16,872 bases of DNA from Fidelibacterota bacterium (GTDB lineage Bacteria > Fidelibacterota > UBA2242). Made by a program: the position numbers and the translations under genes. The stretch is from assembly GCA_049975265.1 (NCBI GenBank), contig JBNGDF010000042.1, positions 1 through 16,872 of the forward strand. Reading direction: 5' to 3'. The notes below the pieces were generated by a model. That model saw only the letters and a program-made list of their open reading frames with translations, was not told the DNA's origin and searched no databases. This document shows, one piece after another, positions 4 through 16,872 of this stretch. How positions within the stretch are numbered: the first letter of the stretch is position 1; every line of letters begins with the position of its first letter.

Positions 4-41
4 CTCTGTGATCCTCTGTGTCTCCTCCGTGTGTCTCCGTG
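4..41 (+). repeat. Four CTCYGTG units; probable right arm of an inverted-repeat element that begins upstream of the window
   Basis: CTCTGTG at 4-10 and 14-20, CTCCGTG at 25-31 and 35-41; same core as the right arms at 13783-13800 and 16843-16872. Confidence 0.7.
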
Positions 42-145
42 TCATAAAATCTTTCAACTTGCCCCCCGCCTGAATGATGCCGATTCATCGGGAATCCCTC
101 AGAATGAAACGCGTTGGTAATCACAAGACCGATACTGTGTAAGGG

Positions 146-246
146 ACAAATCACAAGCACTAGGCACCAAATCCCAAACAAATCACAAGCACCAAGCACC
201 AAATCCCAAACAAATCACAAGCACCAGGCACCAAATCCCAAACAAA
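146..246 (+). repeat. Tandem repeat, 3 x 32 bp plus a partial copy, built from 7-nt subunits
   Basis: ACAAATCACAAGCACYARGCACCAAATCCCAA at 146-177, 178-209 and 210-241, then ACAAA; subunit pattern 7+7+7+7+4. Confidence 0.95.
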
Positions 247-253
247 CACTAAA

Positions 254-303
254 GTTTGGAATTTAGAATTTGTGTGTGATTTGAAATTTGTTATTTGGAA
301 TTT
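254..303 (-). repeat. 7-nt periodic array, imperfect inverted partner of 146-246
   Basis: Reverse complement reads AAATTCC-AAATAAC-AAATTTC-AAATCAC-ACAC-AAATTCT-AAATTCC-AAAC; 233-243 pairs with 254-264 at 10 of 11 positions. Confidence 0.8.
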
Positions 304-329
304 ACTAAAGAATTGTCTCCTGTTTCCTT

Positions 330-358
330 TTCACTTTTCCCAATATATTCCGTATATT
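330..358 (+). promoter_or_regulatory. Putative sigma70-type promoter for wecB
   Basis: TTCACT (330-335), 17 bp spacer, TATATT (353-358); motif match only. Confidence 0.35.
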
Positions 359-376
359 TTTCCCCATATTGTGAAA

Positions 377-394
377 CCTCTGTGTCTTAGTGGT
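377..394 (+). repeat. Orphan right arm of the CTCTGTG element family
   Basis: CCTCTGTGTCTTAGTGGT versus CCTCTGTGTCTCTGTGGC at 13783-13800; abuts the AAAAGG RBS of wecB. Confidence 0.65.
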
Positions 395-407
395 AAAAGG
401 ATTTATT

Positions 408-1505
408 ATGAAAATTGATCTGATTGTTGGTGCCCGTCCCAATTATATGAAAGCCGCGCCGGTCTACCGGGAACTGCTGAAATATCCCGATGAGTTCCAG
501 TGCCGCCTGGTGCATACTGGTCAGCATTACGATGAGAAAATGTCGGCAATATTCTTCCGGGAATTGGAACTGCCGGAGCCTGATATCTATCTGGGAGTCG
601 GTTCCGGATTGCACGGCGAGCAAACCGGTAAGATCATGATTGCCTATGAAAAAGCCGTTCTAGCTGACCGACCAGACCTGGTTCTGGTCGCCGGCGATGT
701 CAACTCCACCGTTGCCTGTTCGCTGGTAGCCGCAAAACTCCACATCAAGGTCGGTCATATCGAGGGCGGTCTGCGTTCCCTGGACTGGAGCATGCCCGAA
801 GAAATCAACCGGATCGTTACCGACAATATCGCCGATTACCTCTTTACCACCTGTCGCGACGCCGACGCCAATCTGCAGGCGGAGGGGATTGCCAGAGAGA
901 AAATTTTTTTCGTCGGCAATACCATGATCGATTCACTGCATTATTATATGCCCAAAATTGATGGTCGTACGATTCATGCTCAACTCGCCGTGGTGCCCGG
1001 CAATTATATCCTGATCACCCTGCATCGTCCATCCAATGTGGACCAGGATGAGATTTTCAGAGGACTTTTTAATGCTCTGGAGAAAATTCAGGAGCGGCTG
1101 CCGGTCGTCTTTCCCATGCATCCCCGCACCCGTAAGATGCTCAAAGAGTTCGGCATGGGGCGCTACCTGCAGTTGCCCAATCTGAAAATCACCGAGCCGC
1201 TAGGCTATCACGATTTTATGAAACTCCAGAAGCACGCCCGCCTGGTTCTCACCGACAGCGGTGGTCTGCAGGAGGAGACGACGGTGCTGGGAGTGCCCTG
1301 CCTGACGCTGCGCAAGAATACCGAACGACCCATCACGATCTGGGAAGGCACTAATGAATTGGTAGGACCCAATCCCGATATTATTTTAAGCCGGACAATG
1401 GCAATACTCGACGGCGCCGTGAAAAAAGGTCGCATTCCCGAGTACTGGGACGGTCACGCCGCCCGGCGTCTGGTCGCGGTTCTGCGGCAGGTAAATTCTC
1501 ATTGA
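408..1505 (+). CDS. wecB: UDP-N-acetylglucosamine 2-epimerase (non-hydrolysing)
   Basis: Motifs VGARPNYMK, VHTGQHYD, GHIEGGLRS, MPEEINR, TLHRPSNVD, TDSGGLQEE, NTERP. ATG 408 follows an AAAAGG RBS and is preferred over GTG 390. Confidence 0.95.
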   Translation: MKIDLIVGARPNYMKAAPVYRELLKYPDEFQCRLVHTGQHYDEKMSAIFFRELELPEPDIYLGVGSGLHGEQTGKIMIAYEKAVLADRPDLVLVAGDVNSTVACSLVAAKLHIKVGHIEGGLRSLDWSMPEEINRIVTDNIADYLFTTCRDADANLQAEGIAREKIFFVGNTMIDSLHYYMPKIDGRTIHAQLAVVPGNYILITLHRPSNVDQDEIFRGLFNALEKIQERLPVVFPMHPRTRKMLKEFGMGRYLQLPNLKITEPLGYHDFMKLQKHARLVLTDSGGLQEETTVLGVPCLTLRKNTERPITIWEGTNELVGPNPDIILSRTMAILDGAVKKGRIPEYWDGHAARRLVAVLRQVNSH

Positions 1506-1564
1506 TTGAGGATTGCGTATGACGCTCCGGCGCTGTCCTCTGGCAGATTGTCTGAATAAATCTA

Positions 1565-1594
1565 TTGACACATAAGCCGCGCCGTAACTATCTT
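1565..1594 (+). promoter_or_regulatory. Putative sigma70-type promoter
   Basis: TTGACA (1565-1570), 18 bp spacer, TATCTT (1589-1594), 8 nt before ATG 1603. Confidence 0.55.
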
Positions 1595-1602
1595 TATCCA
1601 TT

Positions 1603-2109
1603 ATGAAAAATGCCCTTCCCATCATATTTTTAATAACCGCGATAATGGTTTCCTGTGAAGAGGGTCTGGACCCCGTCACCGGAATCGAGGGGGTAGTGCA
1701 TTTTCCGGTGGATTCTCTGACAGAGACGGTGAATTTTCCCGATTCGCTCGAAGGCGCCGTAGTGGTGGTCGCCGATTTCAGTCCCACTTATACGGCGGTG
1801 GATTCCTTCTTTGCCCATATTGTCGCCTATAGCGCAGCGCTGGATACAACCCTGGCTGAGGCGCCCTATTATGTGCAGCTGGCGCCGGGCTTCTATTTTG
1901 TAGGCGTCGTAGGTTTGACAAGACCGCTGACAGAGATTCTGTTCATGCCGCTGGACAGTCTGAGTGCGCATCCCGAATATTTCAAACCGATTGGTCTCTA
2001 TCATCTGCCGGAAAGTACGCTGGGCATCTCCTCGATCCGGGTGGGAGAAGGGGAGTGGCTGACGGAGATTGATATTGATGTGGACTATGAGTTGGAATTA
2101 CCTTTTTAA
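1603..2109 (+). CDS. Hypothetical lipoprotein
   Basis: MKN + hydrophobic stretch + lipobox-like MVS|C (Cys18); acidic, probably beta-rich mature region; directly upstream of a TonB-dependent receptor. Confidence 0.8.
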   Translation: MKNALPIIFLITAIMVSCEEGLDPVTGIEGVVHFPVDSLTETVNFPDSLEGAVVVVADFSPTYTAVDSFFAHIVAYSAALDTTLAEAPYYVQLAPGFYFVGVVGLTRPLTEILFMPLDSLSAHPEYFKPIGLYHLPESTLGISSIRVGEGEWLTEIDIDVDYELELPF

Positions 2110-2205
2110 AGGTGAAAGTTCAAAGCTCAAAGTTCAAAGTTTAAAGTTTAAAGTTTAAAGTTCGAAGGGCAGGGGGCAAAGGTTAACGTTCAAAGGGTAA
2201 AAGGT
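2108..2205 (+). repeat. Degenerate heptamer tandem array, 14 units, consensus AAAGTTY
   Basis: AAAGGTG AAAGTTC AAAGCTC AAAGTTC AAAGTTT AAAGTTT AAAGTTT AAAGTTC GAAGGGC AGGGGGC AAAGGTT AACGTTC AAAGGGT AAAAGGT in unbroken 7-nt register. Confidence 0.9.
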
Positions 2206-2303
2206 CAGGGTTGATGGTGAAAAGGGGAATTCTCATCTCTGAAATGGCGGGGCGCCGGCGGGTTTTTTATTTCCGATCGTTGCTCTTCAGCTATATCAGA
2301 TAT

Positions 2304-4454
2304 ATGTTTCCGCTGCTGATTGTGTCGCTGATGCTTGCGCAGGCGCAGGCGGCAAGTGGTCAGATCGCCGGCGTGGTCTATTCGAAAGAGAGTGGCGAAC
2401 CACTGCCCGGTACCAATATTCTGGTAAAAGGCACGCTGCTGGGTGCCGCGGCGGACCTGGCTGGAGAGTTTCGCATTGATGCCTTGCCGCCGGGTACCTA
2501 CACGTTGCAGATTTTGAATATCGGCTACCAGTCGCAGGAGCTCTCTGTTGACGTTGCCACAGACAGCGTAACGCAGCTGATCATCGAGCTGGAGCCCAAG
2601 GCGATTCGTTCACCGGAGATCGTTGTGACCGGTGCCCGGCGTGCCATGCGCAAGATCGATTCGCCGGTGACCATTGCGACAATCAGCGCTGAGGATATGA
2701 GCTACCGCAATGCCGCAACGGTGCAGGATATTCTGCCCTACGAGTCGGGTGTGCAGCTGCTTGGCGGTCAGATCAGCATGCGGGGCAGCAGCGGATATGC
2801 CCGGGGTGCCGGCAGCCGGGTAATCGTCCTGGTGGACGGCTTTCCGGCAATGTCTTTTGATAACGGCACAATCTACTGGGATGCCGTGCCGGTCCAAAAT
2901 ATCGACCGCATTGAAATTCTGAAAGGACCCGGATCGGCGCTGTACGGCTCCAACGCCATGGGTGGCGTCATTAACATTATTACGAAAACTATGGCACCCG
3001 GTGTCCATACCGATGTCAGTTTTGGGGGCGGTATATACAGTAAACCCAATCGCGAGTCGCTGATCTGGAACGATCGTCCAATGTTGCTGGAGGAGTGGCG
3101 GGTCAGTCATACGCGGCATTTTGGAGCCCTTGCCGCAAAAGCCGCCATTGCCCGATTCCGCTCCGAGAGCTATTACGAAAACGGCTGGATTGACCGCTGG
3201 ATTTTCACTGGTGAGCTGGATTATACCTGGCAGCAGAATCGCCTGCTCCGCTCGCGGCTCTATCTGGTTCTCGATGATCATGGCTCTTTTACCGAATGGA
3301 AAAGCCCCTATCAGCCCTTTCATACGCCTCTCAACACAGAAGACGACCATATCGAAACCCATAAAATGCAATGGTCCACCCTCTATTCCCATGTGGTCTC
3401 TCCGTCGCAATCCCGCCTGCTACGCCTGAATCTCTTCAAAACCCGCTTTGATAACTACCTGCATAACAATACCGGCTATTCCGATTCACGGACACTGAAT
3501 CCGGAGTTTCAGATAAATTTGCGACCGGGCGGGCGTCATTATATCAGCAGCGGGGTGGATTTTAAATATCATCAGGTATCCGCCGATCTCTGGGGCAATC
3601 ACCGAGGACTGGAAGCCGCCGCCTATTTCCAGGATGAAGTTCCGCTGTTGAGCTTTTTGACTGTCAGCTTCGGCGCCCGCTGGGATGTCAACCGGGTGGA
3701 TGATCAACCCTTTAACAGGCAGGTCAATCCAAAACTTGGTCTGACGCTGGATATCAGCAAACAGCTGGTACTGCGCGCTTCCCATGGTTGGGCATACCGG
3801 GCACCGGCGATGGCGGAGATGTTTATCAACACGCAGCAGTACATTTTTCAGGTCAAACCCAATCCGGACCTGCAGCCCGAGACCAACCGCGCCAGCGAAG
3901 TCGGTCTCTACCGGCAGGGTCGCCGGTTCAATCTGGACCTGGCGGTTTTCTCCAGCGATTACCACGATCTGATTGAGCCGATTATGGACCGGCGGGACCA
4001 GCGGATTCAGTTTCGCAATGTCACCGAAGCCCGCATTCAGGGTGGCGAAGCGACCCTTGATTGGGTATGGCAACGCTTACCGCTCACCGGGAAAATCAGC
4101 TATACCTATCTCGATCCCCGGGACCTGAGTGCCGACGATATTCTGGCGTATCGCCATCGCCATACTCTGGTGGTTTCCGGGCAGCTGATCCTTTCGAAAA
4201 ATTTCACCGCCGGAGCAGACTACCGCTATCTGAGCCGCATGGAGCGGGTGCAGCTGTACGATGAGAATCCCGATACCGGCGCCGATCAACGGGTGCCGGT
4301 CAAACTGGTCAGCGGCTTTTGTCAGTTCAGTATGGATAATGTCCTGCGGATCAGTCTGAGTGTGGAAAATCTCCTGCAGTACTACTATGTGGTGGTGGAG
4401 CGCAATATGGGTCCGGTACGACTGATCAAGCTCAGGATTGATTATACATTTTAA
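2304..4454 (+). CDS. TonB-dependent outer membrane receptor with N-terminal carboxypeptidase-regulatory-like domain
   Basis: Signal peptide MFPLLIVSLMLAQAQA; GEPLPGTNILVKGT; EIVVTG; plug motif IDRIEILKGPGSALYGSNAMGGVINIIT; NPDLQPE; C-terminal YTF. Start uncertain (2244 and 2211 are also in frame). Confidence 0.93.
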   Translation: MFPLLIVSLMLAQAQAASGQIAGVVYSKESGEPLPGTNILVKGTLLGAAADLAGEFRIDALPPGTYTLQILNIGYQSQELSVDVATDSVTQLIIELEPKAIRSPEIVVTGARRAMRKIDSPVTIATISAEDMSYRNAATVQDILPYESGVQLLGGQISMRGSSGYARGAGSRVIVLVDGFPAMSFDNGTIYWDAVPVQNIDRIEILKGPGSALYGSNAMGGVINIITKTMAPGVHTDVSFGGGIYSKPNRESLIWNDRPMLLEEWRVSHTRHFGALAAKAAIARFRSESYYENGWIDRWIFTGELDYTWQQNRLLRSRLYLVLDDHGSFTEWKSPYQPFHTPLNTEDDHIETHKMQWSTLYSHVVSPSQSRLLRLNLFKTRFDNYLHNNTGYSDSRTLNPEFQINLRPGGRHYISSGVDFKYHQVSADLWGNHRGLEAAAYFQDEVPLLSFLTVSFGARWDVNRVDDQPFNRQVNPKLGLTLDISKQLVLRASHGWAYRAPAMAEMFINTQQYIFQVKPNPDLQPETNRASEVGLYRQGRRFNLDLAVFSSDYHDLIEPIMDRRDQRIQFRNVTEARIQGGEATLDWVWQRLPLTGKISYTYLDPRDLSADDILAYRHRHTLVVSGQLILSKNFTAGADYRYLSRMERVQLYDENPDTGADQRVPVKLVSGFCQFSMDNVLRISLSVENLLQYYYVVVERNMGPVRLIKLRIDYTF

Positions 4455-4494
4455 GGAAGATAAGTAGTTTGGATAAGTCTGAAGACGAGGACAT

Positions 4495-5193
4495 ATGCCG
4501 AAACTCCTGATTTTGATTGACATTGACGGGACTTTGCTCTATCCCGGAATGGCGCCCCGTTATGCACTGGCGGCGGCAATTGAGGAATTTGTGGGCAAAA
4601 CACTGCGCTTTGAGGTTGACCATCTCGCCGGAATGACCGATCCGCTGATTGTGGCGGATGCCCTGCGGCGCTTAAATATCCCGGCTGAAAAACGGGACGG
4701 TTTGCCGGAGAAGATTCTGGACCGTTATCTGGTTCTTTTACAGCGGCGTTATCCCGACGCCGAAGATCATCACCTCTATCCCGGCACGCTGACCTTGCTG
4801 AATTATCTGCAATCCCAGGCGGTTCGGCTCGGTCTGATCAGCGGCAATCTGGAGCAGGGCGCCCGAATAAAGCTGGCGCCCTTTAACCTGATGCGCTATT
4901 TCAGTCTGGGGGTGTTCAGTAATGATCACGCCCGGCGTGACCGGCTTCCGACCATTGCGCTGGAAAAGTGCCGGCGTCAATTCAAAGAGGATTATCCGCC
5001 GCAGCGTGTCATCATCATCGGTGACACGATTCGGGATGTCCGGTGCGCCCACCGTAACGCCATGCGGGCGATTGCCGTGGTGCGCCATGCCGAGAGGCGG
5101 GCGGGCATCGAAGCGGAAAAACCCGATCTGATTGTCGAGAATTTCGAAGATATTACGCCGATTCGAAAGTATATTGAATCGTTCTTGATGTAA
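4495..5193 (+). CDS. HAD-superfamily hydrolase (phosphoglycolate phosphatase-like)
   Basis: Motif I DIDGTL, ISGN, motif IV IGDTIRD; GAGGA RBS. Confidence 0.9.
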   Translation: MPKLLILIDIDGTLLYPGMAPRYALAAAIEEFVGKTLRFEVDHLAGMTDPLIVADALRRLNIPAEKRDGLPEKILDRYLVLLQRRYPDAEDHHLYPGTLTLLNYLQSQAVRLGLISGNLEQGARIKLAPFNLMRYFSLGVFSNDHARRDRLPTIALEKCRRQFKEDYPPQRVIIIGDTIRDVRCAHRNAMRAIAVVRHAERRAGIEAEKPDLIVENFEDITPIRKYIESFLM

Positions 5194-5274
5194 GCGCTGC
5201 GGGAATTCGGAGAAGCCGGGTTCCGCTTTCCCGTTGGAATTTTTAATTTCACCGTAAAACCGCTATCTTTTAGC

Positions 5275-5724
5275 ATGTTATCGAAAAAGACCAAATATGC
5301 CATTATTGCCTTGGTGCGTCTGGCAAGAGAGTATCGCAAGGAACCGCTCCAGATTGCCACGCTGGCGGAGGAGGAGAAAATTCCCAAAAAATTTCTGGAA
5401 GCGATTTTGCGGGACCTGAAAAATGCCGGCATTCTGAACAGTGTCAAGGGGCGCTACGGCGGCTACTATCTGAGCCAGGACCCTGAAGAGGTCAATCTGG
5501 CAACCATCATTCGCCTGTTTAATGGACCGATCGCCTTTATTCCCTGCGTCACCTATCTCTATTACGAGTCCTGTGATGTGGACAAAGAGGAGGAATTCTG
5601 CGGGATCCGCACCTTTTTCAAAGAGGTACGCGATGCGGCGGTGGAGATTTTCAAACAGGCGACTCTGGCGGAGATTATCCGACGTGAAGATGCCTTAAGA
5701 ACTTCGGGAAAAGCCGCAGATTAA
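5275..5724 (+). CDS. Rrf2-family transcriptional regulator
   Basis: MLSKKTKYAIIAL, IPKKFLEAIL, SVKGRYGGYYL winged HTH; three Cys in C-x8-C-x8-C. Confidence 0.93.
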   Translation: MLSKKTKYAIIALVRLAREYRKEPLQIATLAEEEKIPKKFLEAILRDLKNAGILNSVKGRYGGYYLSQDPEEVNLATIIRLFNGPIAFIPCVTYLYYESCDVDKEEEFCGIRTFFKEVRDAAVEIFKQATLAEIIRREDALRTSGKAAD

Positions 5725-5734
5725 AATTTTTTTC

Positions 5735-5762
5735 TTGCAAATGTCTACTATGTAGGTAGATT
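5735..5762 (+). promoter_or_regulatory. Putative pst promoter with overlapping dyad operator
   Basis: TTGCAA (5735-5740), 16 bp spacer, TAGATT (5757-5762); dyad TCTAC-N7-GTAGA (5744-5760) covers the spacer. Confidence 0.5.
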
Positions 5763-5852
5763 ATATAGGTAATGACGCAAATCCAATGCCTTTTTGACTG
5801 ATTGGTGATGTGTAGACATGGGGATGCGATCACGCTGAGAGGAGGGAACGGC

Positions 5853-6842
5853 ATGCATTTTTCAACAAGATGTTTCAAAGCGACTCGGTTGAACATCATG
5901 ATCCTTACAGTCGCTTTCACCGCTGTGATCGGCTGTCGGAAGCCGGATGCAGAAAAAGTAACGGATAGTAATAAATTATGTGGGATCATTACGATTTCCG
6001 GCGCCTTTGCACTCTACCCCATGACCGTTCAATGGGCAGAGGAATTTCGGAAAATTCATCCCGATGTCCGGATTGATATCTCTGCCGGTGGTGCCGGCAA
6101 AGGCATGGCAGATGCGCTTTCGGGAACCGTGGACCTGGGGATGTTTTCCCGGGAGATCATGTCAACCGAAAAAGCGCGCGGCGTCTGGTGGATTGCTGTT
6201 ACCAAAGATGCCGTGTTACCGACGATCAGCGCCAGGAATCCGGTCGTGGCGGAGCTGAAAAAACGGGGTGTTACGCAAGACCGGTTCAGGGCGATTTTTA
6301 TGGATGAAATGATCCGGGATTGGGGGCATTTGGTCGGCGCCGCAGCGGGAGCCCCGATCCATCTCTATACCCGTAGCGATGCCTGCGGTGCCGCCGGAAC
6401 CTGGGCGCAATATCTGGGCGGTGTTCAGGAGGATTTGAAAGGTATCGGTGTGTATGCCGATCCGGGGCTGGCAGATGCCGTCAGGAAGGACCCGCTGGGA
6501 ATCGGTTATAACAATATGATCTATATTTACAGTGCCGAGACAAATCAAAAGTACCCGGGACTCGAAGTCATCCCTATAGATATCAATGCCAACGGGCGGA
6601 TTGATCCGGAAGAGGATTTTTACGGTTCCATGACCGGAATAATGGCCGCCATTGCCGCCGGGCAGTATCCGTCACCCCCGGCGCGGGAACTCTATTTCGT
6701 TGCTCGGGGAAAACCGGAATCACCCGTCGTAGCTGAATTTTTAAAATGGATTCTCACCGAGGGTCAGCAGTATGTGTCCAAAGCCGGATATGTGCCTCTG
6801 TCCCGGGATGTTATTTCCAAACAGCTGGAAAAATTGAGATAG
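5853..6842 (+). CDS. pstS: Phosphate ABC transporter substrate-binding lipoprotein
   Basis: ITISGAFALYP, GGAGKGM, DLGMFSRE; lipobox VIG|C; GGAGGG RBS before ATG 5853; context with pstCAB. Confidence 0.88.
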   Translation: MHFSTRCFKATRLNIMILTVAFTAVIGCRKPDAEKVTDSNKLCGIITISGAFALYPMTVQWAEEFRKIHPDVRIDISAGGAGKGMADALSGTVDLGMFSREIMSTEKARGVWWIAVTKDAVLPTISARNPVVAELKKRGVTQDRFRAIFMDEMIRDWGHLVGAAAGAPIHLYTRSDACGAAGTWAQYLGGVQEDLKGIGVYADPGLADAVRKDPLGIGYNNMIYIYSAETNQKYPGLEVIPIDINANGRIDPEEDFYGSMTGIMAAIAAGQYPSPPARELYFVARGKPESPVVAEFLKWILTEGQQYVSKAGYVPLSRDVISKQLEKLR

Positions 6843-6851
6843 AAACAGACC

Positions 6852-7736
6852 ATGCTGCACCGCAACACAATCGACAGATTGAGTTCCGGCTGGATGCTGG
6901 TGTGTCTTTTTTTTGTGTTGTTGATTCCGCTGGTGATCGGTTTGGGGCTGGTGCTGAAATCCCTGCCGATTCTGAAAACGGTCCCGCTGGGAGAACTATT
7001 GGGGGCTTCCGACTGGAGACCAATGAGCGGTTATTTCGGCTTCAAGCCTTTTATCATCAGTTCTGTTTACGTGACGTTGATATCCTTCATCATCGCCGGA
7101 CCGGTCTGTCTGCTGGCGGCGATTTATCTGACGCAATATGCGCCGCGGCGCCTGCTTAACCTGATGCAGCCGGCGATCGATATACTTTCCGGTATTCCAT
7201 CGGTGGTCTATGGCGTCTGGGGTATTTTGGTCATTGTACCTTTTGCGCTGAAGTTGGGCTCTTTCCGGAACGTTCCAACCAGCGGCTATTGCCTTCTCTC
7301 CGGGGGAATCGTCCTGGCGGTCATGTCGATTCCCTTTATCCTGAATATTCTGATTGAGGTCTTTCAGACGATTCCGGTGCAACTGAAAGAGGCGTCTCTG
7401 GCGGTCGGTGCCAGCTACTGGGAAACCATCAGGTTGGTTCTCCTGCGGGCGGGCTTTTCCGGGATTATGGCGGCGTTCGGTCTGGGAATTTCCAAAGCGC
7501 TGGGTGAAACGATTGCGGTTCTGATGGTGGTGGGCAACGTGGTCCAGATACCCCAATCGCTGTTTGAAGCAGGGTATCCCCTGCCGGCATTGATCGCCAA
7601 CAATTACGGGGAAATGCTGTCGATTCCCATGTACGATTCCGCTCTGATGTTCGGAGCGCTGATTCTGTTTGTCATTATTGTCCTGTTCAATATTTTCGCC
7701 CGAATGGTAATTAATCATGGAGAAAACCGGTGTTAA
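6852..7736 (+). CDS. pstC: Phosphate ABC transporter permease PstC
   Basis: LSGIPSVVYGVWG, EASLAVGAS, ALGETIAVLMVVGN; multiple transmembrane segments. Confidence 0.93.
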   Translation: MLHRNTIDRLSSGWMLVCLFFVLLIPLVIGLGLVLKSLPILKTVPLGELLGASDWRPMSGYFGFKPFIISSVYVTLISFIIAGPVCLLAAIYLTQYAPRRLLNLMQPAIDILSGIPSVVYGVWGILVIVPFALKLGSFRNVPTSGYCLLSGGIVLAVMSIPFILNILIEVFQTIPVQLKEASLAVGASYWETIRLVLLRAGFSGIMAAFGLGISKALGETIAVLMVVGNVVQIPQSLFEAGYPLPALIANNYGEMLSIPMYDSALMFGALILFVIIVLFNIFARMVINHGENRC

Positions 7737-8584: not shown

Positions 8585-9336
8585 ATGATGCCATCATCAA
8601 TATTCATAATCTGAATGTCGCTCACGCCGGGACACCGATTCTAAAGGATGTCAACCTGGAAATACCCCGCCATAAAGTGACGGTGATTCTGGGTCCGTCG
8701 GGTTGCGGCAAAACGACTCTGTTGAAATGCCTGAATCGCCTGATCGATTTGTATGACGGATTGACGATAAGTGGCAGAATCTATCTTGATAACGAAGAAA
8801 TTCTGAATCGTAAAAACGATCTGACCCGCATTCGCCAGAAAATGGGATTGTTGTCCCAGCGCCCCTATCCACTGCCAATGTCGATTTTTGATAATGTGGC
8901 TTACGGATTGAAAATTCAGGGCTTGCGTAATCGCTTCGAATTAGCCGATCGGGTGGAATTTTACCTGCGACAGGTCAATCTCTGGGAGGAGGTCAAAGAC
9001 CGGCTGAAATCGCCGGCGACCCGGCTCTCCATCGGGCAGCAGCAGCGGCTTTGTCTCGCCCGGGGTTTGGCGGTGGAACCGGAGATCATCCTTGCCGATG
9101 AACCCACCTCGGCGCTGGACCCGCTTTCCAGCACCTGTATCGAAGAGCAGTTTATGCAGCTGAAACGGGATTATACCATTCTGATCGTCACCCACATCAT
9201 GCGGCAGGCGCGGCGTCTGGCGGATCACGTGGTTTTTATTTACCTGGGGGAAATCATCGAGCAGGGCTCGCCGGAACAGCTTTTTGATCATCCCCAGCAC
9301 CCGACGACGAAACAGTATCTGCGGTTGGGGCATTAA
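8581..9336 (+). CDS. pstB: Phosphate ABC transporter ATP-binding protein PstB
   Basis: Walker A GPSGCGKTT, signature LSIGQQQRLCLAR, Walker B ILADEPTSALDP, PMSIFDNVAYG; ATGA overlap with pstA. Confidence 0.94.
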   Translation: MNDAIINIHNLNVAHAGTPILKDVNLEIPRHKVTVILGPSGCGKTTLLKCLNRLIDLYDGLTISGRIYLDNEEILNRKNDLTRIRQKMGLLSQRPYPLPMSIFDNVAYGLKIQGLRNRFELADRVEFYLRQVNLWEEVKDRLKSPATRLSIGQQQRLCLARGLAVEPEIILADEPTSALDPLSSTCIEEQFMQLKRDYTILIVTHIMRQARRLADHVVFIYLGEIIEQGSPEQLFDHPQHPTTKQYLRLGH

Positions 9337-9357
9337 AGCAAATCCCGGGTTTAATAC

Positions 9358-9426
9358 CAACCTTCGGAAGGTTATTCTGTAACATCGTTACAGGCTGAAA
9401 CATTGTGAATAACCTTCCGAAGGTTG
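9358..9426. repeat. Nested palindrome (REPIN-like doublet), possible bidirectional terminator
   Basis: Perfect 20-bp inverted repeat CAACCTTCGGAAGGTTATTC (9358-9377) / GAATAACCTTCCGAAGGTTG (9407-9426), between convergent pstB and citF. Confidence 0.85.
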
Positions 9427-9453
9427 TTCCGGCGGGGTTTTGTTATTTAAACG

Positions 9454-11007
9454 TCATACGATTACCCGCCGGACAGCATCGATAATGGTGCCGTCCACCC
9501 ATTTGATCACCGCCACGATCTCATCGCCCAGTTTTGGTTTTTCGGGGACGCCACAGATTTTCTCCGCCTCGTCTTTGAGCTCTTTGATGGATTTTAACGG
9601 CAGTTTCGTGTTTTTCAAAGCCTTTAATAAATCTTTCCGTCGGGGATTGATCGCAATTCCACGTTCGGTAACGATGATATCGATCAGTTCTCCCGGACCG
9701 GTGATCGTCGTGACTGAATCGCGGATGACCGGAATACGATCCCGAAAGAGGGGAATCGGCAGGATGACGGTTTTACTGAAGAGACAGTTCTGCCAACCGC
9801 CGATGCCGTGCAGCAGGTAGCCGTCGGAGTGGGTATTGACATTGGCGTTGAAATCCAGGTCTACCTCCGTAGCACCCAGAATGACGATATCCACGAATTG
9901 CGCAAAATTGCCTTTTCCATGATAGTTATAACTGGTGAATGGCGATGTATCGCGGTGGCGGGGATTATCCCGCAGGGAGCGGACACCTTCGAGATCAAAG
10001 GTTTGTCCGTCGAGGATATAGTCAACCAGACCCTCCTCAAGCATTTTGACCAGGTACTGGTTGCTGCCACCCCGGGCGAAGCGGGCTTTAATGCTTTTTT
10101 CCCGCATCATCTGCTCAAAGTAATGCGTAATCGCCAGGGAGGTGCCGCCGGCTCCCGCCTGAAACGAAAAACCGTTTTTAATCAACCCGGCTTCGAGGCA
10201 GAGTTGAGCGGTCATTTCGGCGATCAGCAGGCGGTCAGGGCTCTTGGTGATTTTGGTCGTTCCGGAGACGATTTTTTCCGGCTCACCGATTTTATCCATC
10301 TGAACGACGTAATCCACATAATTGCCCTGAATTTGCCAGGGAACACAGGGAAAATCCACCAGATTATCGGTGACAACGATGACCTTGTGAGCATACTGGG
10401 AATCCGCCAGCGCAAAGCCCAGCAGACCGCAGGCTGATGCTCCGGTAACACCGTTGGCATTGCCGAAGGGATCGGCGGTGGGTGCGGCGATAACGGCGAT
10501 ATCGATGACCACTTCGCCGTCCTGAACCGCCTGATAGCGTCCGCCGTGGGAGCGTAAAACCCCCATGCCTCTCATTTTCCCTTCCGAGCAGTAGCGCCCC
10601 AGCGCACCGTTCAGGCTGCCCTCGATGTGATGGATTGTGCCGTTTTCCATAAAATCGATCATTTCGGCGTGGCAGGGAAAGGATGCCGAGGGAAACCAGA
10701 CCAGGTCTTTGATCCCAAGTTCCGCAGCAATCCGGAAAATCTGGACCGCGACGAGATCACCGTTGCGAAAATGGTGGTGGGTCGAGATGGTCATACCGTC
10801 TTTCAATCCGGCTTTACGCAGGGCTGTTTTCAAATCCCTGACCCGTTTATCGCCGGAGGGGAAATCCGCCATGCTGGCGGCCGGCGGTGCATATTTACGA
10901 TAGTCGGGTCTGTATTTACCAATTCCTTTATAGGGGACCTGTTTTTTGCCGTTCACTTCGGTGGGTACCAGGCGTCCCAGCGCATTTTTAACGAGTTCAG
11001 TTGCCAT
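9454..11007 (-). CDS. citF: Citrate lyase alpha subunit / citrate CoA-transferase
   Basis: GLKDGMTISTHHHFRNGD, RSHGGR, FSFQAGAGG, GATEVDLDFNANV, VTERGIAINPRR, DGTIIDAV; ATG 11007 has a GGAGA RBS and overlaps the upstream stop. Confidence 0.92.
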   Translation of the reverse strand: MATELVKNALGRLVPTEVNGKKQVPYKGIGKYRPDYRKYAPPAASMADFPSGDKRVRDLKTALRKAGLKDGMTISTHHHFRNGDLVAVQIFRIAAELGIKDLVWFPSASFPCHAEMIDFMENGTIHHIEGSLNGALGRYCSEGKMRGMGVLRSHGGRYQAVQDGEVVIDIAVIAAPTADPFGNANGVTGASACGLLGFALADSQYAHKVIVVTDNLVDFPCVPWQIQGNYVDYVVQMDKIGEPEKIVSGTTKITKSPDRLLIAEMTAQLCLEAGLIKNGFSFQAGAGGTSLAITHYFEQMMREKSIKARFARGGSNQYLVKMLEEGLVDYILDGQTFDLEGVRSLRDNPRHRDTSPFTSYNYHGKGNFAQFVDIVILGATEVDLDFNANVNTHSDGYLLHGIGGWQNCLFSKTVILPIPLFRDRIPVIRDSVTTITGPGELIDIIVTERGIAINPRRKDLLKALKNTKLPLKSIKELKDEAEKICGVPEKPKLGDEIVAVIKWVDGTIIDAVRRVIV

Positions 11008-12226
11008 AAGAATCTCTCCAGTTTTCCGGCAGTCTGCCGGCGTCAATTGCCATCGCAATGGTTTTCTGCGCCCGCTTGACGACGGGCGGATCGATCATTT
11101 TGGAGCCCAGCGCCACGACGCCGAGTTTTTTCTCTTCCGCCTCGTGAAAGGCGTTGACGATTTTCTGAGCCTTCTCGATTTCAGTGTCAGTGGGCGCAAA
11201 GGCGTCGTGAATCACCGGAACCTGGCGCGGATGAATACAGCCCATGCCCTCGAACCCCATGGCTTTGGACGCCTGCACCGTCTGACGCAGCCCCTCTTGA
11301 TCGGCAACATCGGAAAAGACCGAATCGATGGCTTGAATGCCGGCAGCTCTGGCGGCATTGACCAGCATGCTGCGGGCAAAAAAACTTTCACTGCCGTCCT
11401 GAGTTCTCTGGGTTCCCAGATCGGCGGTATAGTCCTCCAGACCAATCGCCAGCGCCACGACATTCGGACTGGCGGTAGCGATTTCATACGCATTGAGGAC
11501 GCCTTTGGCGCTTTCAATAATCGGCATGAGGTACACCGGGTAATCGAGCCCTTTCGCCTTTTTTATGACTTGTACTTTTTGGTCAATTTGGCTCAGATAA
11601 TCGGCATCTTCGCATTTTGGGACAAGAATAATATTGACATAATGGGGGACGATGAAATCAAGGTCTGCCAGTCCGCGTTCGCCCTGGTTGATCCGAACCA
11701 TACGCTCGCAACCATAAAAATTATTGGCTCGCAGGGCATTGCGGACGAGATAGCGGGCTTCGTCCTTTTTTACTGGTGCGACGCTGTCTTCCAGGTCCAG
11801 AATGATCCCGTCGGCTTTGTGCAGCCCGGCATTGATGAAGAGCTTGGGGGTATTGCCCGGCAGGTAGAGACGCGAACGACGGTAGCGATCGCGGGTGGTG
11901 GTAACGGTGTTTTCCGGGAGCATTTTCGGTAGAAATTCCCGGTCTGTCTGCTTTATCTGATTGATCGCCGCCTCCAGCCGTGCCGCAATGACAAACGGCA
12001 GGGCGCCGCTGTCATCCAGCGTGAGCCGTGCGTGTTCAATTTCAAAAAAGTGCAGAATCTCCCGAAGGAGCTGATGAATAGACTCTCCGAACAGAACCGC
12101 GACCTTGCTCTGAACCTCCAGCCGGATTCCGCCCTGCATGGTCAATTCGATTTCCACGTAGCAATCGGAACGAACGTCGGTTCCCCGATTTCCTGTGGCT
12201 GCCCGTTTTCCCACCGTTACCTCCAT
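10997..12226 (-). CDS. citE: Fused citrate lyase acyl-carrier (CitD-like) and citryl-ACP/CoA lyase (CitE) protein
   Basis: About 90 N-terminal aa CitD-like (RSDCYV, SKVAVLFGESI, DDSGALPFVIAARLEAAI). C-terminal CitE motifs: RRSRLYLPGN, ILDLEDSV, VRIN, PIIESAKG, GLEDY, IHPRQ, MIDPPVV. Confidence 0.9.
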   Translation of the reverse strand: MEVTVGKRAATGNRGTDVRSDCYVEIELTMQGGIRLEVQSKVAVLFGESIHQLLREILHFFEIEHARLTLDDSGALPFVIAARLEAAINQIKQTDREFLPKMLPENTVTTTRDRYRRSRLYLPGNTPKLFINAGLHKADGIILDLEDSVAPVKKDEARYLVRNALRANNFYGCERMVRINQGERGLADLDFIVPHYVNIILVPKCEDADYLSQIDQKVQVIKKAKGLDYPVYLMPIIESAKGVLNAYEIATASPNVVALAIGLEDYTADLGTQRTQDGSESFFARSMLVNAARAAGIQAIDSVFSDVADQEGLRQTVQASKAMGFEGMGCIHPRQVPVIHDAFAPTDTEIEKAQKIVNAFHEAEEKKLGVVALGSKMIDPPVVKRAQKTIAMAIDAGRLPENWRDSYGN

Positions 12227-12383
12227 TTTCAATTGAAGTCAAAATTGGGAAGATTTACGTTAAAAATCAATGTTTGGTAATGAAAAAAGATAGAAATGGC
12301 AGGATTCTCGGACATCAGGCGCCGGATTCATCAAACAAGATGATGATTTTTGAAAAATATTCTTAAAAAAGTAAAGCTTTCTA

Positions 12384-12413
12384 TTGAATTTTAATCCACC
12401 GCTGTCCTAAATT
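12384..12413 (+). promoter_or_regulatory. Putative sigma70-type promoter for the aconitase-like operon
   Basis: TTGAAT (12384-12389), 18 bp spacer, TAAATT (12408-12413); same CTATTGA context and spacer as the promoter at 1565. Confidence 0.45.
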
Positions 12414-12457
12414 GCCAGCTAAATGTTTTATCAAATCATGCATTTACAGGAGCAGCA

Positions 12458-13705
12458 ATGGGAAAGACATTCAGTGAAAAAATCCTGGGAATGAAAGCCG
12501 GGAAAAGTGTCGTACCCGGCGAGATCATTGAGGTGGAACCCGATGTCGCCATGAGCCATGACAACACGGCAGCCATTTCCAAGACCTTTTATAAGATCGG
12601 TGTGGAGCGGGTCTGTTACCCTGAGCGGCATGTGGTTATTCTGGATCACTGCACGCCGGCAGCCAACGAGAAGTTTGCCCAGAATCATAAGGATATCCGG
12701 GAGTTTGTCCGCCAGCAGGGCATCCGGAATTTTTACGATATCAACGTCGGTATCTGTCATCAGGTAATGCCGGAAAAGGGGCACGTCTGGCCGGGTGCTC
12801 TGATTGTGGGCGCCGATTCGCATACCACTTCCTACGGTGCATTTGGCGCTTTCTCGACGGGAATCGGTCGCAGTGAAATGGCGGCTATCATGGCGCGGGG
12901 AAAGATCTGGCTGCGGGTTCCCGAGACGATCCGGGTGTATGTGGAGGGAAAATTCCCGCCGGGAATTTCCTCCAAGGATTTGATGTTGAAAATAGCTGGA
13001 ACCATCGGTGCCGACGGCGCGCTGTACAAAGCCATTGAATTCTGCGGACCCACAATTGAAGAAATGAGTGCCGCCAGTCGCTTCGTGTTGGCTAATATGG
13101 CGGTGGAAGTGGGTGCGAAAGCCGGATATATGGTTCCGAACCGGGCGACACTGGACTTTTTAAAAGGTCGCGTTACCCGGGATTTTGAGATTGTCCGCTC
13201 CGATCCCGATGCGGAGTATGAGACCGAGTACCGCTTTGATGTATCGGATTTGGAGCCGATGATTGCCAAACCCCATACCGTTGACAATGTCGTTCCCGTG
13301 AGTACAGTAAAAGGGACGAAAATTGATCAGGTCTTTTTTGGTTCCTGTACCAATGCCCGGGTCGAGGATTTTGAGGTGGTTGCCGAAGTACTGCGGGGCA
13401 AAAAGGTGCATCGCGATGTGCGCATGCTGGTCTTTCCGGCATCTCAGGAAATCTATCTCGAGGTGCTGAAACGGGGCTGGATTACGGAACTGGTGGATGC
13501 CGGCTGTGTGATTATGAATCCCGGTTGTGGTCCCTGCATGGGTAACCATGAGGGTGTGCCCGCCAATGGCGAAGTGACGCTGGCGACCTCTAATCGAAAT
13601 TTCAAGGGTCGGCTCGGAAATAAAGAAGCCTTTGTCTATCTGGTCAGTCCCCGTTCGGCAGCGGTTTCGGCATTGACGGGTAAGATCGAGGATTTCAGAG
13701 AATAG
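12458..13705 (+). CDS. Homoaconitase / 3-isopropylmalate dehydratase large subunit (LeuC/HacA type)
   Basis: VILDH, GICHQV, GADSHTTSYGAFG, FFGSCTNAR and PGCGPCMG (three Fe-S Cys), TSNRNFKGR; AGGAG RBS. Confidence 0.93.
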   Translation: MGKTFSEKILGMKAGKSVVPGEIIEVEPDVAMSHDNTAAISKTFYKIGVERVCYPERHVVILDHCTPAANEKFAQNHKDIREFVRQQGIRNFYDINVGICHQVMPEKGHVWPGALIVGADSHTTSYGAFGAFSTGIGRSEMAAIMARGKIWLRVPETIRVYVEGKFPPGISSKDLMLKIAGTIGADGALYKAIEFCGPTIEEMSAASRFVLANMAVEVGAKAGYMVPNRATLDFLKGRVTRDFEIVRSDPDAEYETEYRFDVSDLEPMIAKPHTVDNVVPVSTVKGTKIDQVFFGSCTNARVEDFEVVAEVLRGKKVHRDVRMLVFPASQEIYLEVLKRGWITELVDAGCVIMNPGCGPCMGNHEGVPANGEVTLATSNRNFKGRLGNKEAFVYLVSPRSAAVSALTGKIEDFRE

Positions 13706-13800
13706 CTGCGGAGGCACGGAGGACTCTGAGAATAATGATACCGGACGAGAATATTAGGATACTTTAAGTTATTATGAACATGCCTCTGTGTCTCTGTGGC
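13705..13800 (+). mobile_element. Small inverted-repeat element (MITE-like) of the CACGGAG/CTCTGTG family
   Basis: Left arm 13705-13722 pairs with right arm 13783-13800; 60-nt AT-rich interior; 13705-13731 is 22/27 identical to 16714-16740. Mobility is inferred. Confidence 0.65.
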
Positions 13801-13822
13801 ATTAAATAGAGAGGAGTCAGGA

Positions 13823-14317
13823 ATGATTATAAAAGGAAAGGTCTGGAAATATGGGAACGATGTCAATACGGATGTCATTTTTCCCGGTAAATACACCTAT
13901 ACGGTGACTGAACCGGCGGAGATGGCGAAAGTGGCGCTGGAGGACCTGGACCCGGAATTTGCTAAAAATGTCCGGAAAGGCGATGTGATCGTCGGTGGAA
14001 CCAATTTCGGTTGCGGCAGCAGTCGCGAGCAGGCGGCAGCCTGTCTGGTCTATGCCGGTGTTGGCGCCGTAATCGCCGAGACCTTTGCCCGGATCTATTT
14101 TCGCAACTGTATCAATTTCGGTCTGCCGGCATTGACATCGGCGCAGGCGGTTGATGCTGTGGTGCATGGCGAAACAATTGAAATCGATACGGACAAAGGT
14201 GAAATCCGCTGTCAGGCTGGGGTATTTACATTTCCGCCGCTGCCCCGGGAAGTGGTGGGGATTTTCGATGCCGGCGGACTGATTCCCTATACGAAGAAGC
14301 AATTAGGAATTGAATGA
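13823..14317 (+). CDS. Homoaconitase / 3-isopropylmalate dehydratase small subunit (LeuD/HacB type)
   Basis: [59 protein letters not shown] before ATG 13823. Confidence 0.93.
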
Positions 14318-15483
14318 AATCACCCCTGTTTGAGTGGATTGTTCCCAGGTCACTGCGCAGGAATGCAGACCGGACTGCCTACGGGTGTCTGGAAGGGCGG
14401 GTCAGTATTGTGGTCAATTTTTTCCTGTTTGCAGGTAAATTGATCATCGGATTGCTAATCAACTCCATTGCGCTGATTGCTGATGCCGTCCACTCATTGT
14501 CGGATGTTGCCACGTCGCTTATTGTCATTTTAGGATATCGGATTTCTGCCAGACCGGCGGACCGCGAGCACCCTTTTGGTCATCAGCGTGCCGAATATGT
14601 GGCTACTCTGATTATGGCGGTATTACTGGTCGTAGCCGGAATAGAATTTATGAAATCCTCCTACGGACGACTGATCAATCCGCGCCTGGGCGTCGTTCAC
14701 TGGGGAGTGCTGGTATTTGTGTTTGCCACGATTTTGATCAAGACCTGGCTGGGTGGTTTTTCGGCATATCTCGGCAGAAAAATCGATTCGGCCGCGTTGC
14801 GGGCGGATGCACTCCACCATTATACCGATTCGGTCAGTTCGGTCCTGGTATTGATTGCAATTTTCGGAGCAAAATTGGGGTATCATTTTCTGGACGGAGC
14901 CGGCGGAATGGCAGTGGGATTTCTATTGATTTGGGCGGGTATTTCTATTGCCAGAGATGCTGCCGATACGCTGGTGGGCAAAGCCCCGACACGGGAGTAT
15001 ATCGCAGACATCCGCAAGACTTGTCTGAGTGTGGAAAATGTACACAGCATTCATGACGCGGTAGTTCACAGCTATGGAGACCAAAAATTTATCAGTGTGC
15101 ACGTGGAGGTGGATCAGGAAAACAGCAGCCTGCGGGCGCACGAGATTGCCACAAAGGTGGAGCAGTTGCTGGCGCAGCGGCTGAACGCCTATGCCATCGT
15201 GCATGTGGATCCCGTCGATCTGCACAGTCCAACCGTTGAGCGGCTGCGTCATTTGATTGCAGAATTTGTCCGAAACAGCAGCGCAATCCGGGAATTTCAC
15301 GATCTGCGGGTCGTCACCGGGACCGACCGGCAGAAAGTCTTCTTCGATATCGTACCAGTTGGAGAAGCGGTAAGTCGCTGTGAGGATCTGGATGATTGCC
15401 AAAAATTGATACACAAGATTCACCGGTACTATCCGCAATACGAAGTGCAGATTCATATTGACCAGATATATGCGTTTAATTAG
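14314..15483 (+). CDS. Cation diffusion facilitator (CDF) family transporter
   Basis: [40 protein letters not shown]; two tandem C-terminal dimerisation-type domains; ATGA overlap with the upstream gene. Confidence 0.92.
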
Positions 15484-15507
15484 TTAAATTAAGAAGGAGA
15501 AAGATCC

Positions 15508-16707
15508 ATGGCGAAACGAACAATTGTTACCATGCCCGGTGATGGGATTGGTAAAAATGTCCTCCGGGAAGCGCTGCGCGTTCTGGATGCAGCCGGTTTC
15601 GAAGCGGATTATGTGGATGCTGATATCGGCTGGGAATTCTGGTGCCGGGATGGCAATCCGCTGCCCCAACGAACCTTGGACCTGATCGAAAAGCATAAAA
15701 TCGCGCTGTTTGGGGCGATCACCTCAAAGCCCAAAGATGCCGCGGCTGCCGAACTCAGTCCCGATTTACAGAGCAAAGGATTGGTCTATTCCAGCCCGAT
15801 CGTCGGTCTGCGGCAGCATTTCAACCTGGATATCTGTATGCGTCCCTGTCGTTCCTATAAGGGCAATCCACTGAATTTCATCCGGCGCGGTGCCGGGGAC
15901 TCAATCGAGGAGCCGGAAATCGATGTGGTCATTTTCCGCCAGAACACCGAGGGTCTTTACGGCGGGGTGGAGTGGAGCAATCCGCCGGATATCGTATACG
16001 AAGCCCTGATGACTCATCCCAAGTTTGTCAAAAATTTCAGTCAAACGCCCAGAGAGGAGCTGTCGGTCTCGACCCGGATATTTACCAGGAGAGCCACCGA
16101 GCGGATTTTGCGGGCGGCGTTTGACCATGCGAAAAATTACGGATATCGCTCGGTTACAGTCTGTGAAAAACCCAATGTTATCCGTGAAACCTCCGGAATG
16201 ATGTACAAGATGGCACAGCAGATCCAGAAAAGCGATTATCCGGAGATTGAACTTTGGAATACCAATATCGACGCTCAGATGATGTGGCTGACCAAGAATC
16301 CGGAAGATTATGGTGTCATCGTGGCGGGGAACATGTTCGGGGATATCGTTTCCGACGGATTTGCGGGGCTCATCGGCGGGCTGGGTTTTGCCTGCTCGGC
16401 GCAGTTTAATCCCGACAGCGGCATCGGCGTTTTTGAGCCGACCCACGGCTCGGCGCCGAAGTATGCCGATTATCCGGTCTCCATCGTCAATCCGATCGCC
16501 ATGATCGAGTCCGCCTGTATGATGCTGGATTTCATCGCTGAAAACGATCTGGCAGCCCGAATCCGTAAAGCCGTGGCAGAGGTCATTGCCGAAGGGAAGG
16601 TCCGGACATATGATATGCTCAAAATGCCCGGGCGACCGGATGTGCTGGAAAGGGGCGCCACTTCGACGCAGCAGATGGCAGATGCAATCATTGAAAAGAT
16701 AAAGTAA
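15508..16707 (+). CDS. Beta-decarboxylating dehydrogenase (isocitrate/isopropylmalate family), homoisocitrate-dehydrogenase-like
   Basis: PGDGIG, LFGAITS, YSSPIVGLRQ, FRQNTEGLY, EKPNV, NMFGDIVSD, FEPTHGSAP, NPIAMI; AAGGAG RBS. Confidence 0.92.
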   Translation: MAKRTIVTMPGDGIGKNVLREALRVLDAAGFEADYVDADIGWEFWCRDGNPLPQRTLDLIEKHKIALFGAITSKPKDAAAAELSPDLQSKGLVYSSPIVGLRQHFNLDICMRPCRSYKGNPLNFIRRGAGDSIEEPEIDVVIFRQNTEGLYGGVEWSNPPDIVYEALMTHPKFVKNFSQTPREELSVSTRIFTRRATERILRAAFDHAKNYGYRSVTVCEKPNVIRETSGMMYKMAQQIQKSDYPEIELWNTNIDAQMMWLTKNPEDYGVIVAGNMFGDIVSDGFAGLIGGLGFACSAQFNPDSGIGVFEPTHGSAPKYADYPVSIVNPIAMIESACMMLDFIAENDLAARIRKAVAEVIAEGKVRTYDMLKMPGRPDVLERGATSTQQMADAIIEKIK

Positions 16708-16710
16708 TTT

Positions 16711-16872
16711 TTTGCCACGGAGACACGGAGGGCTCAGAGACCTTTTATTGATTAATTTCAATTCACGTTTGATGAAAGAAGGAGTGAAACGATTTATTAT
16801 TTGAACAGAGATGTTTGGAATATATTGGAAAAATAAAAATTTTCTTAGTGTACTCTGTGCCTCTGTGGCAAA
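16711..16872 (+). mobile_element. Inverted-repeat element of the CACGGAG/CTCTGTG family carrying a gene remnant
   Basis: Left arm 16711-16740 pairs with right arm 16843-16872 at 19 of the outer 20 positions, counting 2 G-T pairs; about 100 nt AT-rich interior. Confidence 0.7.
16742..16804 (+). pseudogene. C-terminal remnant of a GxxExxY-family protein gene
   Basis: Translates as LLLINFNSRLMKEGVKRFII*, resembling the family C-terminus as I recall it (GLLINFNxxxLKxGIKRxx). The rest of the gene is absent. Confidence 0.7.

Follow-up and report, generated by a model that had tools for sequence, protein, structure and literature searches.

The stretch of DNA analysed here, referred to as the window, is the whole of contig C42 (JBNGDF010000042.1; 16,872 nt) in the genome of a Fidelibacterota bacterium (GCA_049975265.1, here G000). 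Its host genes include wecB, the two subunit genes of a homoaconitase/isopropylmalate (IPM) dehydratase and a gene of the isocitrate/isopropylmalate-dehydrogenase family, and the spaces beside them hold inverted repeats, or arms, built from the words CACRGAG and CTCYGTG (Table 1). A first-pass annotation had read four such sites as hairpins placed between a stop codon and the next ribosome-binding site (RBS) and had suspected a connection with GxxExxY proteins. This connection is borne out by two observations. The loop of the element at 16711 encodes the last 19 codons of the GxxExxY gene found intact on contig C33, and 64 of 72 GxxExxY loci have at least three arm words within 220 nt of the gene. 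The hairpins are almost certainly the arms and leftovers of a GxxExxY gene cassette.

These repeats are genuine and far exceed what chance would give. The doublet motif matches the window 5 times against 0 in 200 Markov simulations, and the genome scan proposed in the first-pass annotation gave 20 strict doublet-arm loci against 0 for the reversed pattern used as a control. Only 2 of these 20 loci lie inside called genes, in a genome of which 91.5% is called coding. A looser definition of the unit places 30 of 42 chains outside called genes, and 21 of these 30 have an outer end at most 25 nt from a called gene end, confirming the tight position at gene ends that had been anticipated; these positions come from a simple gene caller, and two of the genes concerned are weak calls. 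One arm pattern was also found in 12 of 41 related genomes, again with 0 for the reversed control. Rfam gave no match within the window at E values up to 1.

The proposed placement between a stop and an RBS stands for 13705-13800 and 16711-16870 and fails for the other two sites. The stem at 13705 does begin in the last base (G) of the TAG at 13703-13705 and does end 10 nt before the GAGGAG of the small subunit gene. It folds on the + strand (z -4.5, 0 of 200 shuffles) and not on the - strand (z +0.4), and in close strains its 3' arm is longer by one 10-nt unit. The 16711 arm lies directly behind a stop, as annotated, and 16711-16870 folds on both strands (z -5.2 and -4.5). The arm at 377-394 adjoins the RBS of wecB (AAAAGGA, with the ATG at 408), but no gene was called upstream of it on the contig and no partner arm was found, the region 255-400 folding at z +0.9. 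The arm at 4-41 is 366 nt from the closest called gene. A uniform + orientation had also been read from CTCTGTG on the + strand, a claim without content, since CTCTGTG appears on either strand of any full inverted repeat; on C10 and C20, CTCYGTG on the + strand is the 5' arm of a minus-strand element. Window 1-55 matches such an arm on C20 (76% over 55 nt, E 5e-4, blastn). The C20 elements are minus-coded and start TGAGAGGATTATGACAC, and the minus strand of the window reads TGAAAGATTTTATGACAC at this point. Because of this match, we read 4-56 as most likely the 5' arm of an element of the C20 subtype that is coded on the minus strand and whose remainder would lie off the contig.

Table 1 Features of the window that bear on the cassette, with the strand and the evidence for each. 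Positions are those of the window unless a contig is given; C20 and C33 are other contigs of the same genome.
Position	Strand	Feature	Evidence or remark
4..56	- (most likely)	single arm, four CTCYGTG units on +	blastn 76% over 55 nt to C20:40098-40152
377..401	+	lone 3' arm and A-rich RBS of wecB	no upstream stop, no partner arm
408..1505	+	wecB, UDP-GlcNAc 2-epimerase (host)	TIGR00236 above cut-off
12458..13705	+	homoaconitase/IPM-dehydratase large subunit (host), TAG overlapping arm end	TIGR02086/TIGR01343 above cut-off; C-termini in relatives
13705..13800	+	solo hairpin without cargo, 18-bp core stem 13705-13722/13783-13800	z -4.5 on +
13811..14317	+	RBS GAGGAG (13811-13816) and small subunit gene from 13823 (host)	family scan
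15508..16707	+	isocitrate/isopropylmalate-dehydrogenase-family gene (host)	family matches, all below equivalog cut-offs
16711..16740	+	5' arm	begins at 4th base past TAA 16705-16707
16745..16804	+	remnant, last 19 codons and stop of GxxExxY gene	100% identical to residues 104-122 of C33 protein
16745..16872	+	128-bp direct repeat: gene end, spacer and 3' arm	second copy C33:367-494, 125/128 identical
16844..16870	+	3' arm, three units, at contig end	sequence and fold

The repeat that ends the window recurs behind the intact GxxExxY gene on C33, and several lines of evidence bear on how the two contigs join. The joint from 16872 to 16745 is present in 4 of 4 public DNA runs. In run X1 the gene lies on one 384-nt contig and the repeat on two variant contigs, while the closest relative (G002) has a single repeat copy followed directly by the same HD-domain gene that stands behind the gene on C33. 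The most likely layout given these data is dehydrogenase, 5' arm, remnant, 3' arm, intact gene, 3' arm and HD gene; within G000, the end of C42 and the beginning of C33 show 2 mismatches. Run X7 has the repeat as a single contig, with roughly double the depth of its flanks and 4 differences from the C33 copy, which suggests that the two repeat copies are homogenised within a genome. Run X3 contains a related strain with a 158-bp internal deletion in the GxxExxY gene at locus L001 (151-310).

G000 carries 4 GxxExxY genes. The one on C20 is flanked by two near-identical hairpins, the one on C49 by two different hairpins and the one on C28 by another arm word, ATCCTGT; the arm words thus differ at the genome's other GxxExxY genes. 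Whole genes within arms, the remnant at 16745, the solo hairpin at 13705 and single arms make up the decay series that the first-pass annotation had supposed. Two operons are worth describing for their own sake. In C20:36300-41600, which from reading the translations rather than from a family scan we take to be lexA with two polymerase genes, hairpins occur at every junction, an intact GxxExxY gene is present, a 55-nt remnant sits between two identical hairpins and one open reading frame (ORF) runs through a hairpin. The operon at C49:480-8000, presumably a CRISPR-cas locus as judged by eye, has a hairpin-GxxExxY-hairpin cassette and two further arm sites, and the C-terminus TTENTESTEK of one of its genes is encoded by an arm.

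The association of gene and arms extends well beyond this genome. The sample comprised 72 loci, 31 from G000 and its relatives and 41 from GTDB, counted after numbering overlaps (L113, L118 and L129 duplicate L020, L043 and L051) and less 2 of 74 loci (L106 and L108), whose ORF of under 250 nt excluded them from the tree and the arm counts. The commonest layout among the 64 loci with arm words is a gene between a left and a right arm (29/64), followed by a gene between two left-right pairs (7). Homologues 61-67% identical in Acidobacteriota, Sumerlaeota and Verrucomicrobiota have GCCACAGAG-R-CACAGAG arms, as in the window. Arm class clusters on the protein tree (19 changes against 32.3 when shuffled, 0 of 200 shuffles), and the two arms of one cassette are closer to each other than to the arms of other cassettes in 20 of 23 cases (85% vs 72%). 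The first arm unit follows the upstream stop at a median distance of about 10 nt. PF13366 matches, as many as 30 in a genome and many of them broken, occur in 35 of 41 genomes. In four places (G008:C27, G030:C57, G028:C32 and G034:C504) adjacent tandem GxxExxY matches were seen, three of them in a single open frame of 257-276 aa, possibly fused doubles.

The C33 protein belongs to TIGR04256/PF13366 (154 bits against a cut-off of 35), TIGR04256 being its sole NCBIfam match. G24, E27, Y30, D66 and K78 are invariant in an alignment of 25 of the 72 proteins (A1), and both the GxxExxY and the D..ExK motifs are intact in 65 of 72. An AlphaFold model of the protein has a pLDDT of 95 and its best matches are mostly PD-(D/E)XK nucleases, including Cas4 SSO0001 (Z 8.0, rmsd 4.3, 100 aligned), lambda exonuclease and Hjc. 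The protein is thus predicted to be a nuclease of the PD-(D/E)XK fold. Foldseek gave no match at E 0.001 or better (best E 2.7e-3), a sequence search of the PDB with alignment A1 gave 0 matches, and PADLOC matched 0 of 3 proteins.

Further support comes from fixed gene junctions, where the elements come and go among relatives, as the first-pass annotation had expected. Both dehydratase subunit genes are present in 26 of 27 loci. Between them lie short gaps of 2-40 nt (6 of 26), a solo CACRGAG hairpin (3, the window included), a whole GxxExxY gene inside its arms (1, L020), a four-helix-bundle gene with other repeats (14, with TIGR02436 confirmed for L010) or something else (2). Behind the dehydrogenase gene, 10 of 18 orthologous loci have CACRGAG-type elements, from a whole cassette down to a solo hairpin; 2 have short gaps, 3 another repeat type and 3 are unscorable. 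Neighbouring control junctions are tight, 20 of 21 measuring at most 23 nt and 18 of 19 measuring 12-34 nt. Of 24 carA/carB loci examined, 22 were scorable; the junction is short in 11 of these and holds hairpins or a cassette in the other 11, and several of these elements are chimeras of a 5' arm of one class and a 3' arm of another. A clear arm adjoins the RBS at 5 of 14 wecB loci, the window's included, and in G002 an 8-nt arm stub precedes a four-helix-bundle cassette. The counts describe the junctions and do not test them, since the genomes are kin. We infer that cassettes pile up at a junction and that differential deletion follows.

Both ends of the cassette appear to carry signals that an operon needs. 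The arm end TAGC is found on the left in 8 of 23 cases and on the right in 6 of 23, and in 5 relatives the TAG overlaps the arm end and the large subunit ends DFR[E/N] at the stop, most others being a few residues longer. The RBS text behind the 3' arm is identical before wecB in L140 and L145 and before the GxxExxY gene on C33. From this we infer that the cassette brings both a stop (the TAGCCAC end) and an A-rich RBS. With both signals supplied, looping out of the insert is not needed, and its tolerance within operons would be more simply explained.

For the system as a whole we lean, at slightly better than an even chance, towards a selfish mobile cassette that acts at the level of DNA, in which the nuclease reads its own arms and triggers host recombination. 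This proposal starts from what was observed directly, namely how arms and gene are laid out, that elements are gained and lost at fixed junctions, and that there are remnants, duplications as direct repeats and chimeric arms. The unit would consist of a 5' arm, a small gene for a predicted PD-(D/E)XK nuclease and an inverted 3' arm with an RBS. The enzyme likely recognises and nicks the arms as DNA, and the nicks could be repaired through recombination with other arm-bearing copies. Repair of this kind would cause new cassettes to land just past a stop codon, often where the junction already holds an arm, and deletion between repeats would then leave remnants, solo hairpins and single arms. 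The insert would be tolerated in operons through its own stop at the 5' end and its own RBS behind the 3' arm.

A number of points weigh against this proposal. The fold matches are middling, and because tRNA splicing endonucleases are among them (Z 5.2-5.8) an RNA substrate is possible; nuclease action on the arms is itself a prediction. A PD-(D/E)XK nuclease cannot join DNA, so host repair must be invoked. The co-clustering of arm and protein could be expected from simple linkage too, and the kin compared are not independent. Neighbours are co-directional in 47 of 53 cases upstream and 45 of 53 downstream, which is not above the genome-wide baseline of 84% and only modestly above the 70% for gaps of at least 90 nt, all figures coming from a crude ORF caller of which some calls are visibly wrong. 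No close pair of empty and filled sites that would define the ends of the element, and any target duplication of the kind expected of an insertion sequence or MITE, was found among the relatives, the empty alleles being too diverged to align at the ends. Finally, the 13705 hairpin folds on the coding strand only, and 7 of 10 hairpins in G000 fold better on that strand.

This last point is what would be expected of an RNA-level intervening sequence (IVS), in which pairing of the two arms within the transcript would loop out the cargo and RNase III or the GxxExxY protein would cleave the arms, as in the IVSs of 23S rRNA. The first-pass annotation had proposed much the same, with folding of the mRNA bringing the stop and the next RBS back together or with the stem as a processing site. 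The stems of 18-30 bp would suit such a mechanism, as would the covariation of the arms within cassettes and the presence in the genome of a signature motif of RNase III. In 14 of 26 relatives a sister cassette at the dehydratase subunit junction bears a four-helix-bundle gene, the protein family of the 23S rRNA IVSs, and a Coxiella member is described (PMC4990558) as excised by RNase III and as having tandem heptamer repeats. Selection on an mRNA stem should enrich G-U pairs on the coding strand, yet 53 arm pairs show 39 G-U against 54 A-C mismatches (p 0.15), a comparison made without the 8 loci that have no arm words and in which tandem units can slip in register, adding noise for solo hairpins. 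Duplex energy is better for the coding strand in 22 of 47 pairs and for the template strand in 24, with 1 tie. With no coding-strand bias the idea gains no support. In addition, some upstream ORFs run through arms in frame (C49 6550, C20 40041 and L048), the operon mRNA would be split by excision without re-ligation, single arms are still found next to RBSs, and RNA processing does not explain the gain of DNA at new junctions. Some RNA processing is possible, and the claim is best called unsupported rather than refuted, but as an account of the cassette we judge it unlikely.

It is likewise doubtful that the nuclease serves the host while the repeats are passive, as has been proposed for SsnA in Neisseria. 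The enzyme would gate incoming or single-stranded DNA that bears arms, and the cassette would be moved by host recombination and gene transfer only. The Ssn precedent speaks for this, and so do the intact motifs of most top-scoring genes (65/72), the low copy number of the arms (20 strict loci) and the age of some junction insertions, which are common to members of a family. It fits poorly with up to 30 gene copies per genome, tandem and broken ones included, with gene-plus-arm units in place of a single housekeeping locus, and with the empty PADLOC result. Ordinary intergenic stems unrelated to the nuclease, either terminators or chance AT-rich palindromes, would account for stem-loops directly behind stop codons but have almost no probability left, being refuted by the remnant and the gene association, by the lack of a U-tract (an A-rich RBS follows the stems, which also removes intrinsic terminators as candidates), by positions inside operons, by a loop that contains the end of a GxxExxY gene and by 0 matches to the reversed control.

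Returning to the DNA-level cassette, three published systems can be compared with it. Ssn nucleases cut single-stranded DNA (ssDNA) at their own flanking hairpins, are the first family of site-specific ssDNA nucleases and are usable as a tool, and the authors who describe them compare NTS-ssnA-NTS with a mobile element that has been domesticated (Chenal et al. 2025, PMC11893778). As in Ssn/SRM, a small single-domain nuclease gene is flanked by hairpin repeats that are also found alone between genes, which is what the 64 loci and the solo copies display, and repeat variants track protein variants. Ssn is a GIY-YIG enzyme, a domain absent here, whereas the GxxExxY cassette encodes a protein of TIGR04256/PF13366, its sole NCBIfam match, with mostly PD-(D/E)XK fold matches. 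The arms also differ in being 2-4 tandem heptamers at a period of 8-11 nt that often enclose the whole gene, in few copies per genome and at operon junctions.

The REPIN/RAYT system (Bertels and Rainey, bioRxiv 10.1101/2021.07.10.451892) similarly has inverted extragenic doublets tied to an enzyme gene with the same flanking repeats; here 18 of 20 strict loci lie outside called genes and the doublets form hairpins. RAYT is a single-copy, vertically inherited and immobile HUH/tyrosine transposase (same source), whereas family and fold searches found no HUH/tyrosine fold in the GxxExxY protein, which is neither single-copy nor vertical, with 4 copies in G000, up to 30 matches in relatives and the 61-67% homologues in other phyla. 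The 23S rRNA IVS of Coxiella (PMC4990558) shares a gene inside terminal inverted repeats with tandem heptamers, and the four-helix-bundle family of IVSs occupies the same junction in relatives. The copies described here sit in protein operons, have GxxExxY as cargo and show no coding-strand RNA signature; their flanks are protein genes and the window has no Rfam match. Integron gene cassettes (attC), marked by an integron integrase and attC R/L boxes, may offer a further resemblance in having a gene between directly repeated hairpins. By analogy, then, the cassette would work like Ssn/SRM and REP/RAYT but with another enzyme.

The cargo family itself is listed as PDDEXK_3/PF13366, with function 'unknown' and multiple transfers, by Steczkiewicz et al. 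(2012, PMC3424549), in a table passage that makes no mention of flanking repeats or a cassette. We found no published description of the cassette in open PMC papers and bioRxiv, a search that did not extend to subscription papers and supplements. Supplementary Data 3 of the Ssn paper, on gene/repeat associations, may bear on whether other nuclease families were noticed.

Several other observations were made along the way. PF05635 four-helix-bundle matches number 4 in G000 (C24:3827-4144, C7:13296-13607, C7:9019-9192 and C7:2703-2807), all of them sitting at tight gene junctions and flanked by words of 7-8 bases in inverted runs; two match the model in part only. Window 146-305 is an unrelated second foldback in which three repeats of 32-bp period (37 nt, 95-100%) pair with a T-rich arm (z -2.7); we take it to resemble the arms of four-helix-bundle-type cassettes, but the four such genes in G000 have other words in their flanks. 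A short palindrome at 75-107, CCGATTCATCGG, occurs 3 times in the genome, and comparable sequence precedes wecB in G002; it is another repeat family stacked in the same intergenic space. A perfect 20-bp inverted repeat with a 29-nt spacer lies at 9358-9426 between convergent pstB-like and citF genes, probably yet another family since contigs C10 and C41 end in similar text. On the minus strand at 10997-12226, the gamma (ACP) and beta subunits of citrate lyase are fused in a single ORF.

More speculatively, the GxxExxY cassette may belong to a widespread class of 'junction cassettes', a proposal that we put forward tentatively and at somewhat less than an even chance. Unrelated mini-genes (GxxExxY nucleases and the four-helix-bundle family), each marked by arms in a tandem-word code of its own, would home to and stack at the same operon junctions, bringing a stop and an RBS with them, and GxxExxY would be a second family of hairpin-specific nucleases of ~120 aa with many orthogonal specificities. 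The GxxExxY cassette as proposed above would explain loosened and reshuffled junctions in core operons of these bacteria, such as those between the large and small dehydratase subunits, the dehydrogenase and HD genes, carA and carB, and in the lexA-linked polymerase operon of C20. It would also tie rRNA intervening sequences to a broader class of cassettes. For PF13366, a very common and long-unexplained family, the arms provide a concrete candidate substrate, and one small protein with a handful of oligonucleotides would suffice to test it.

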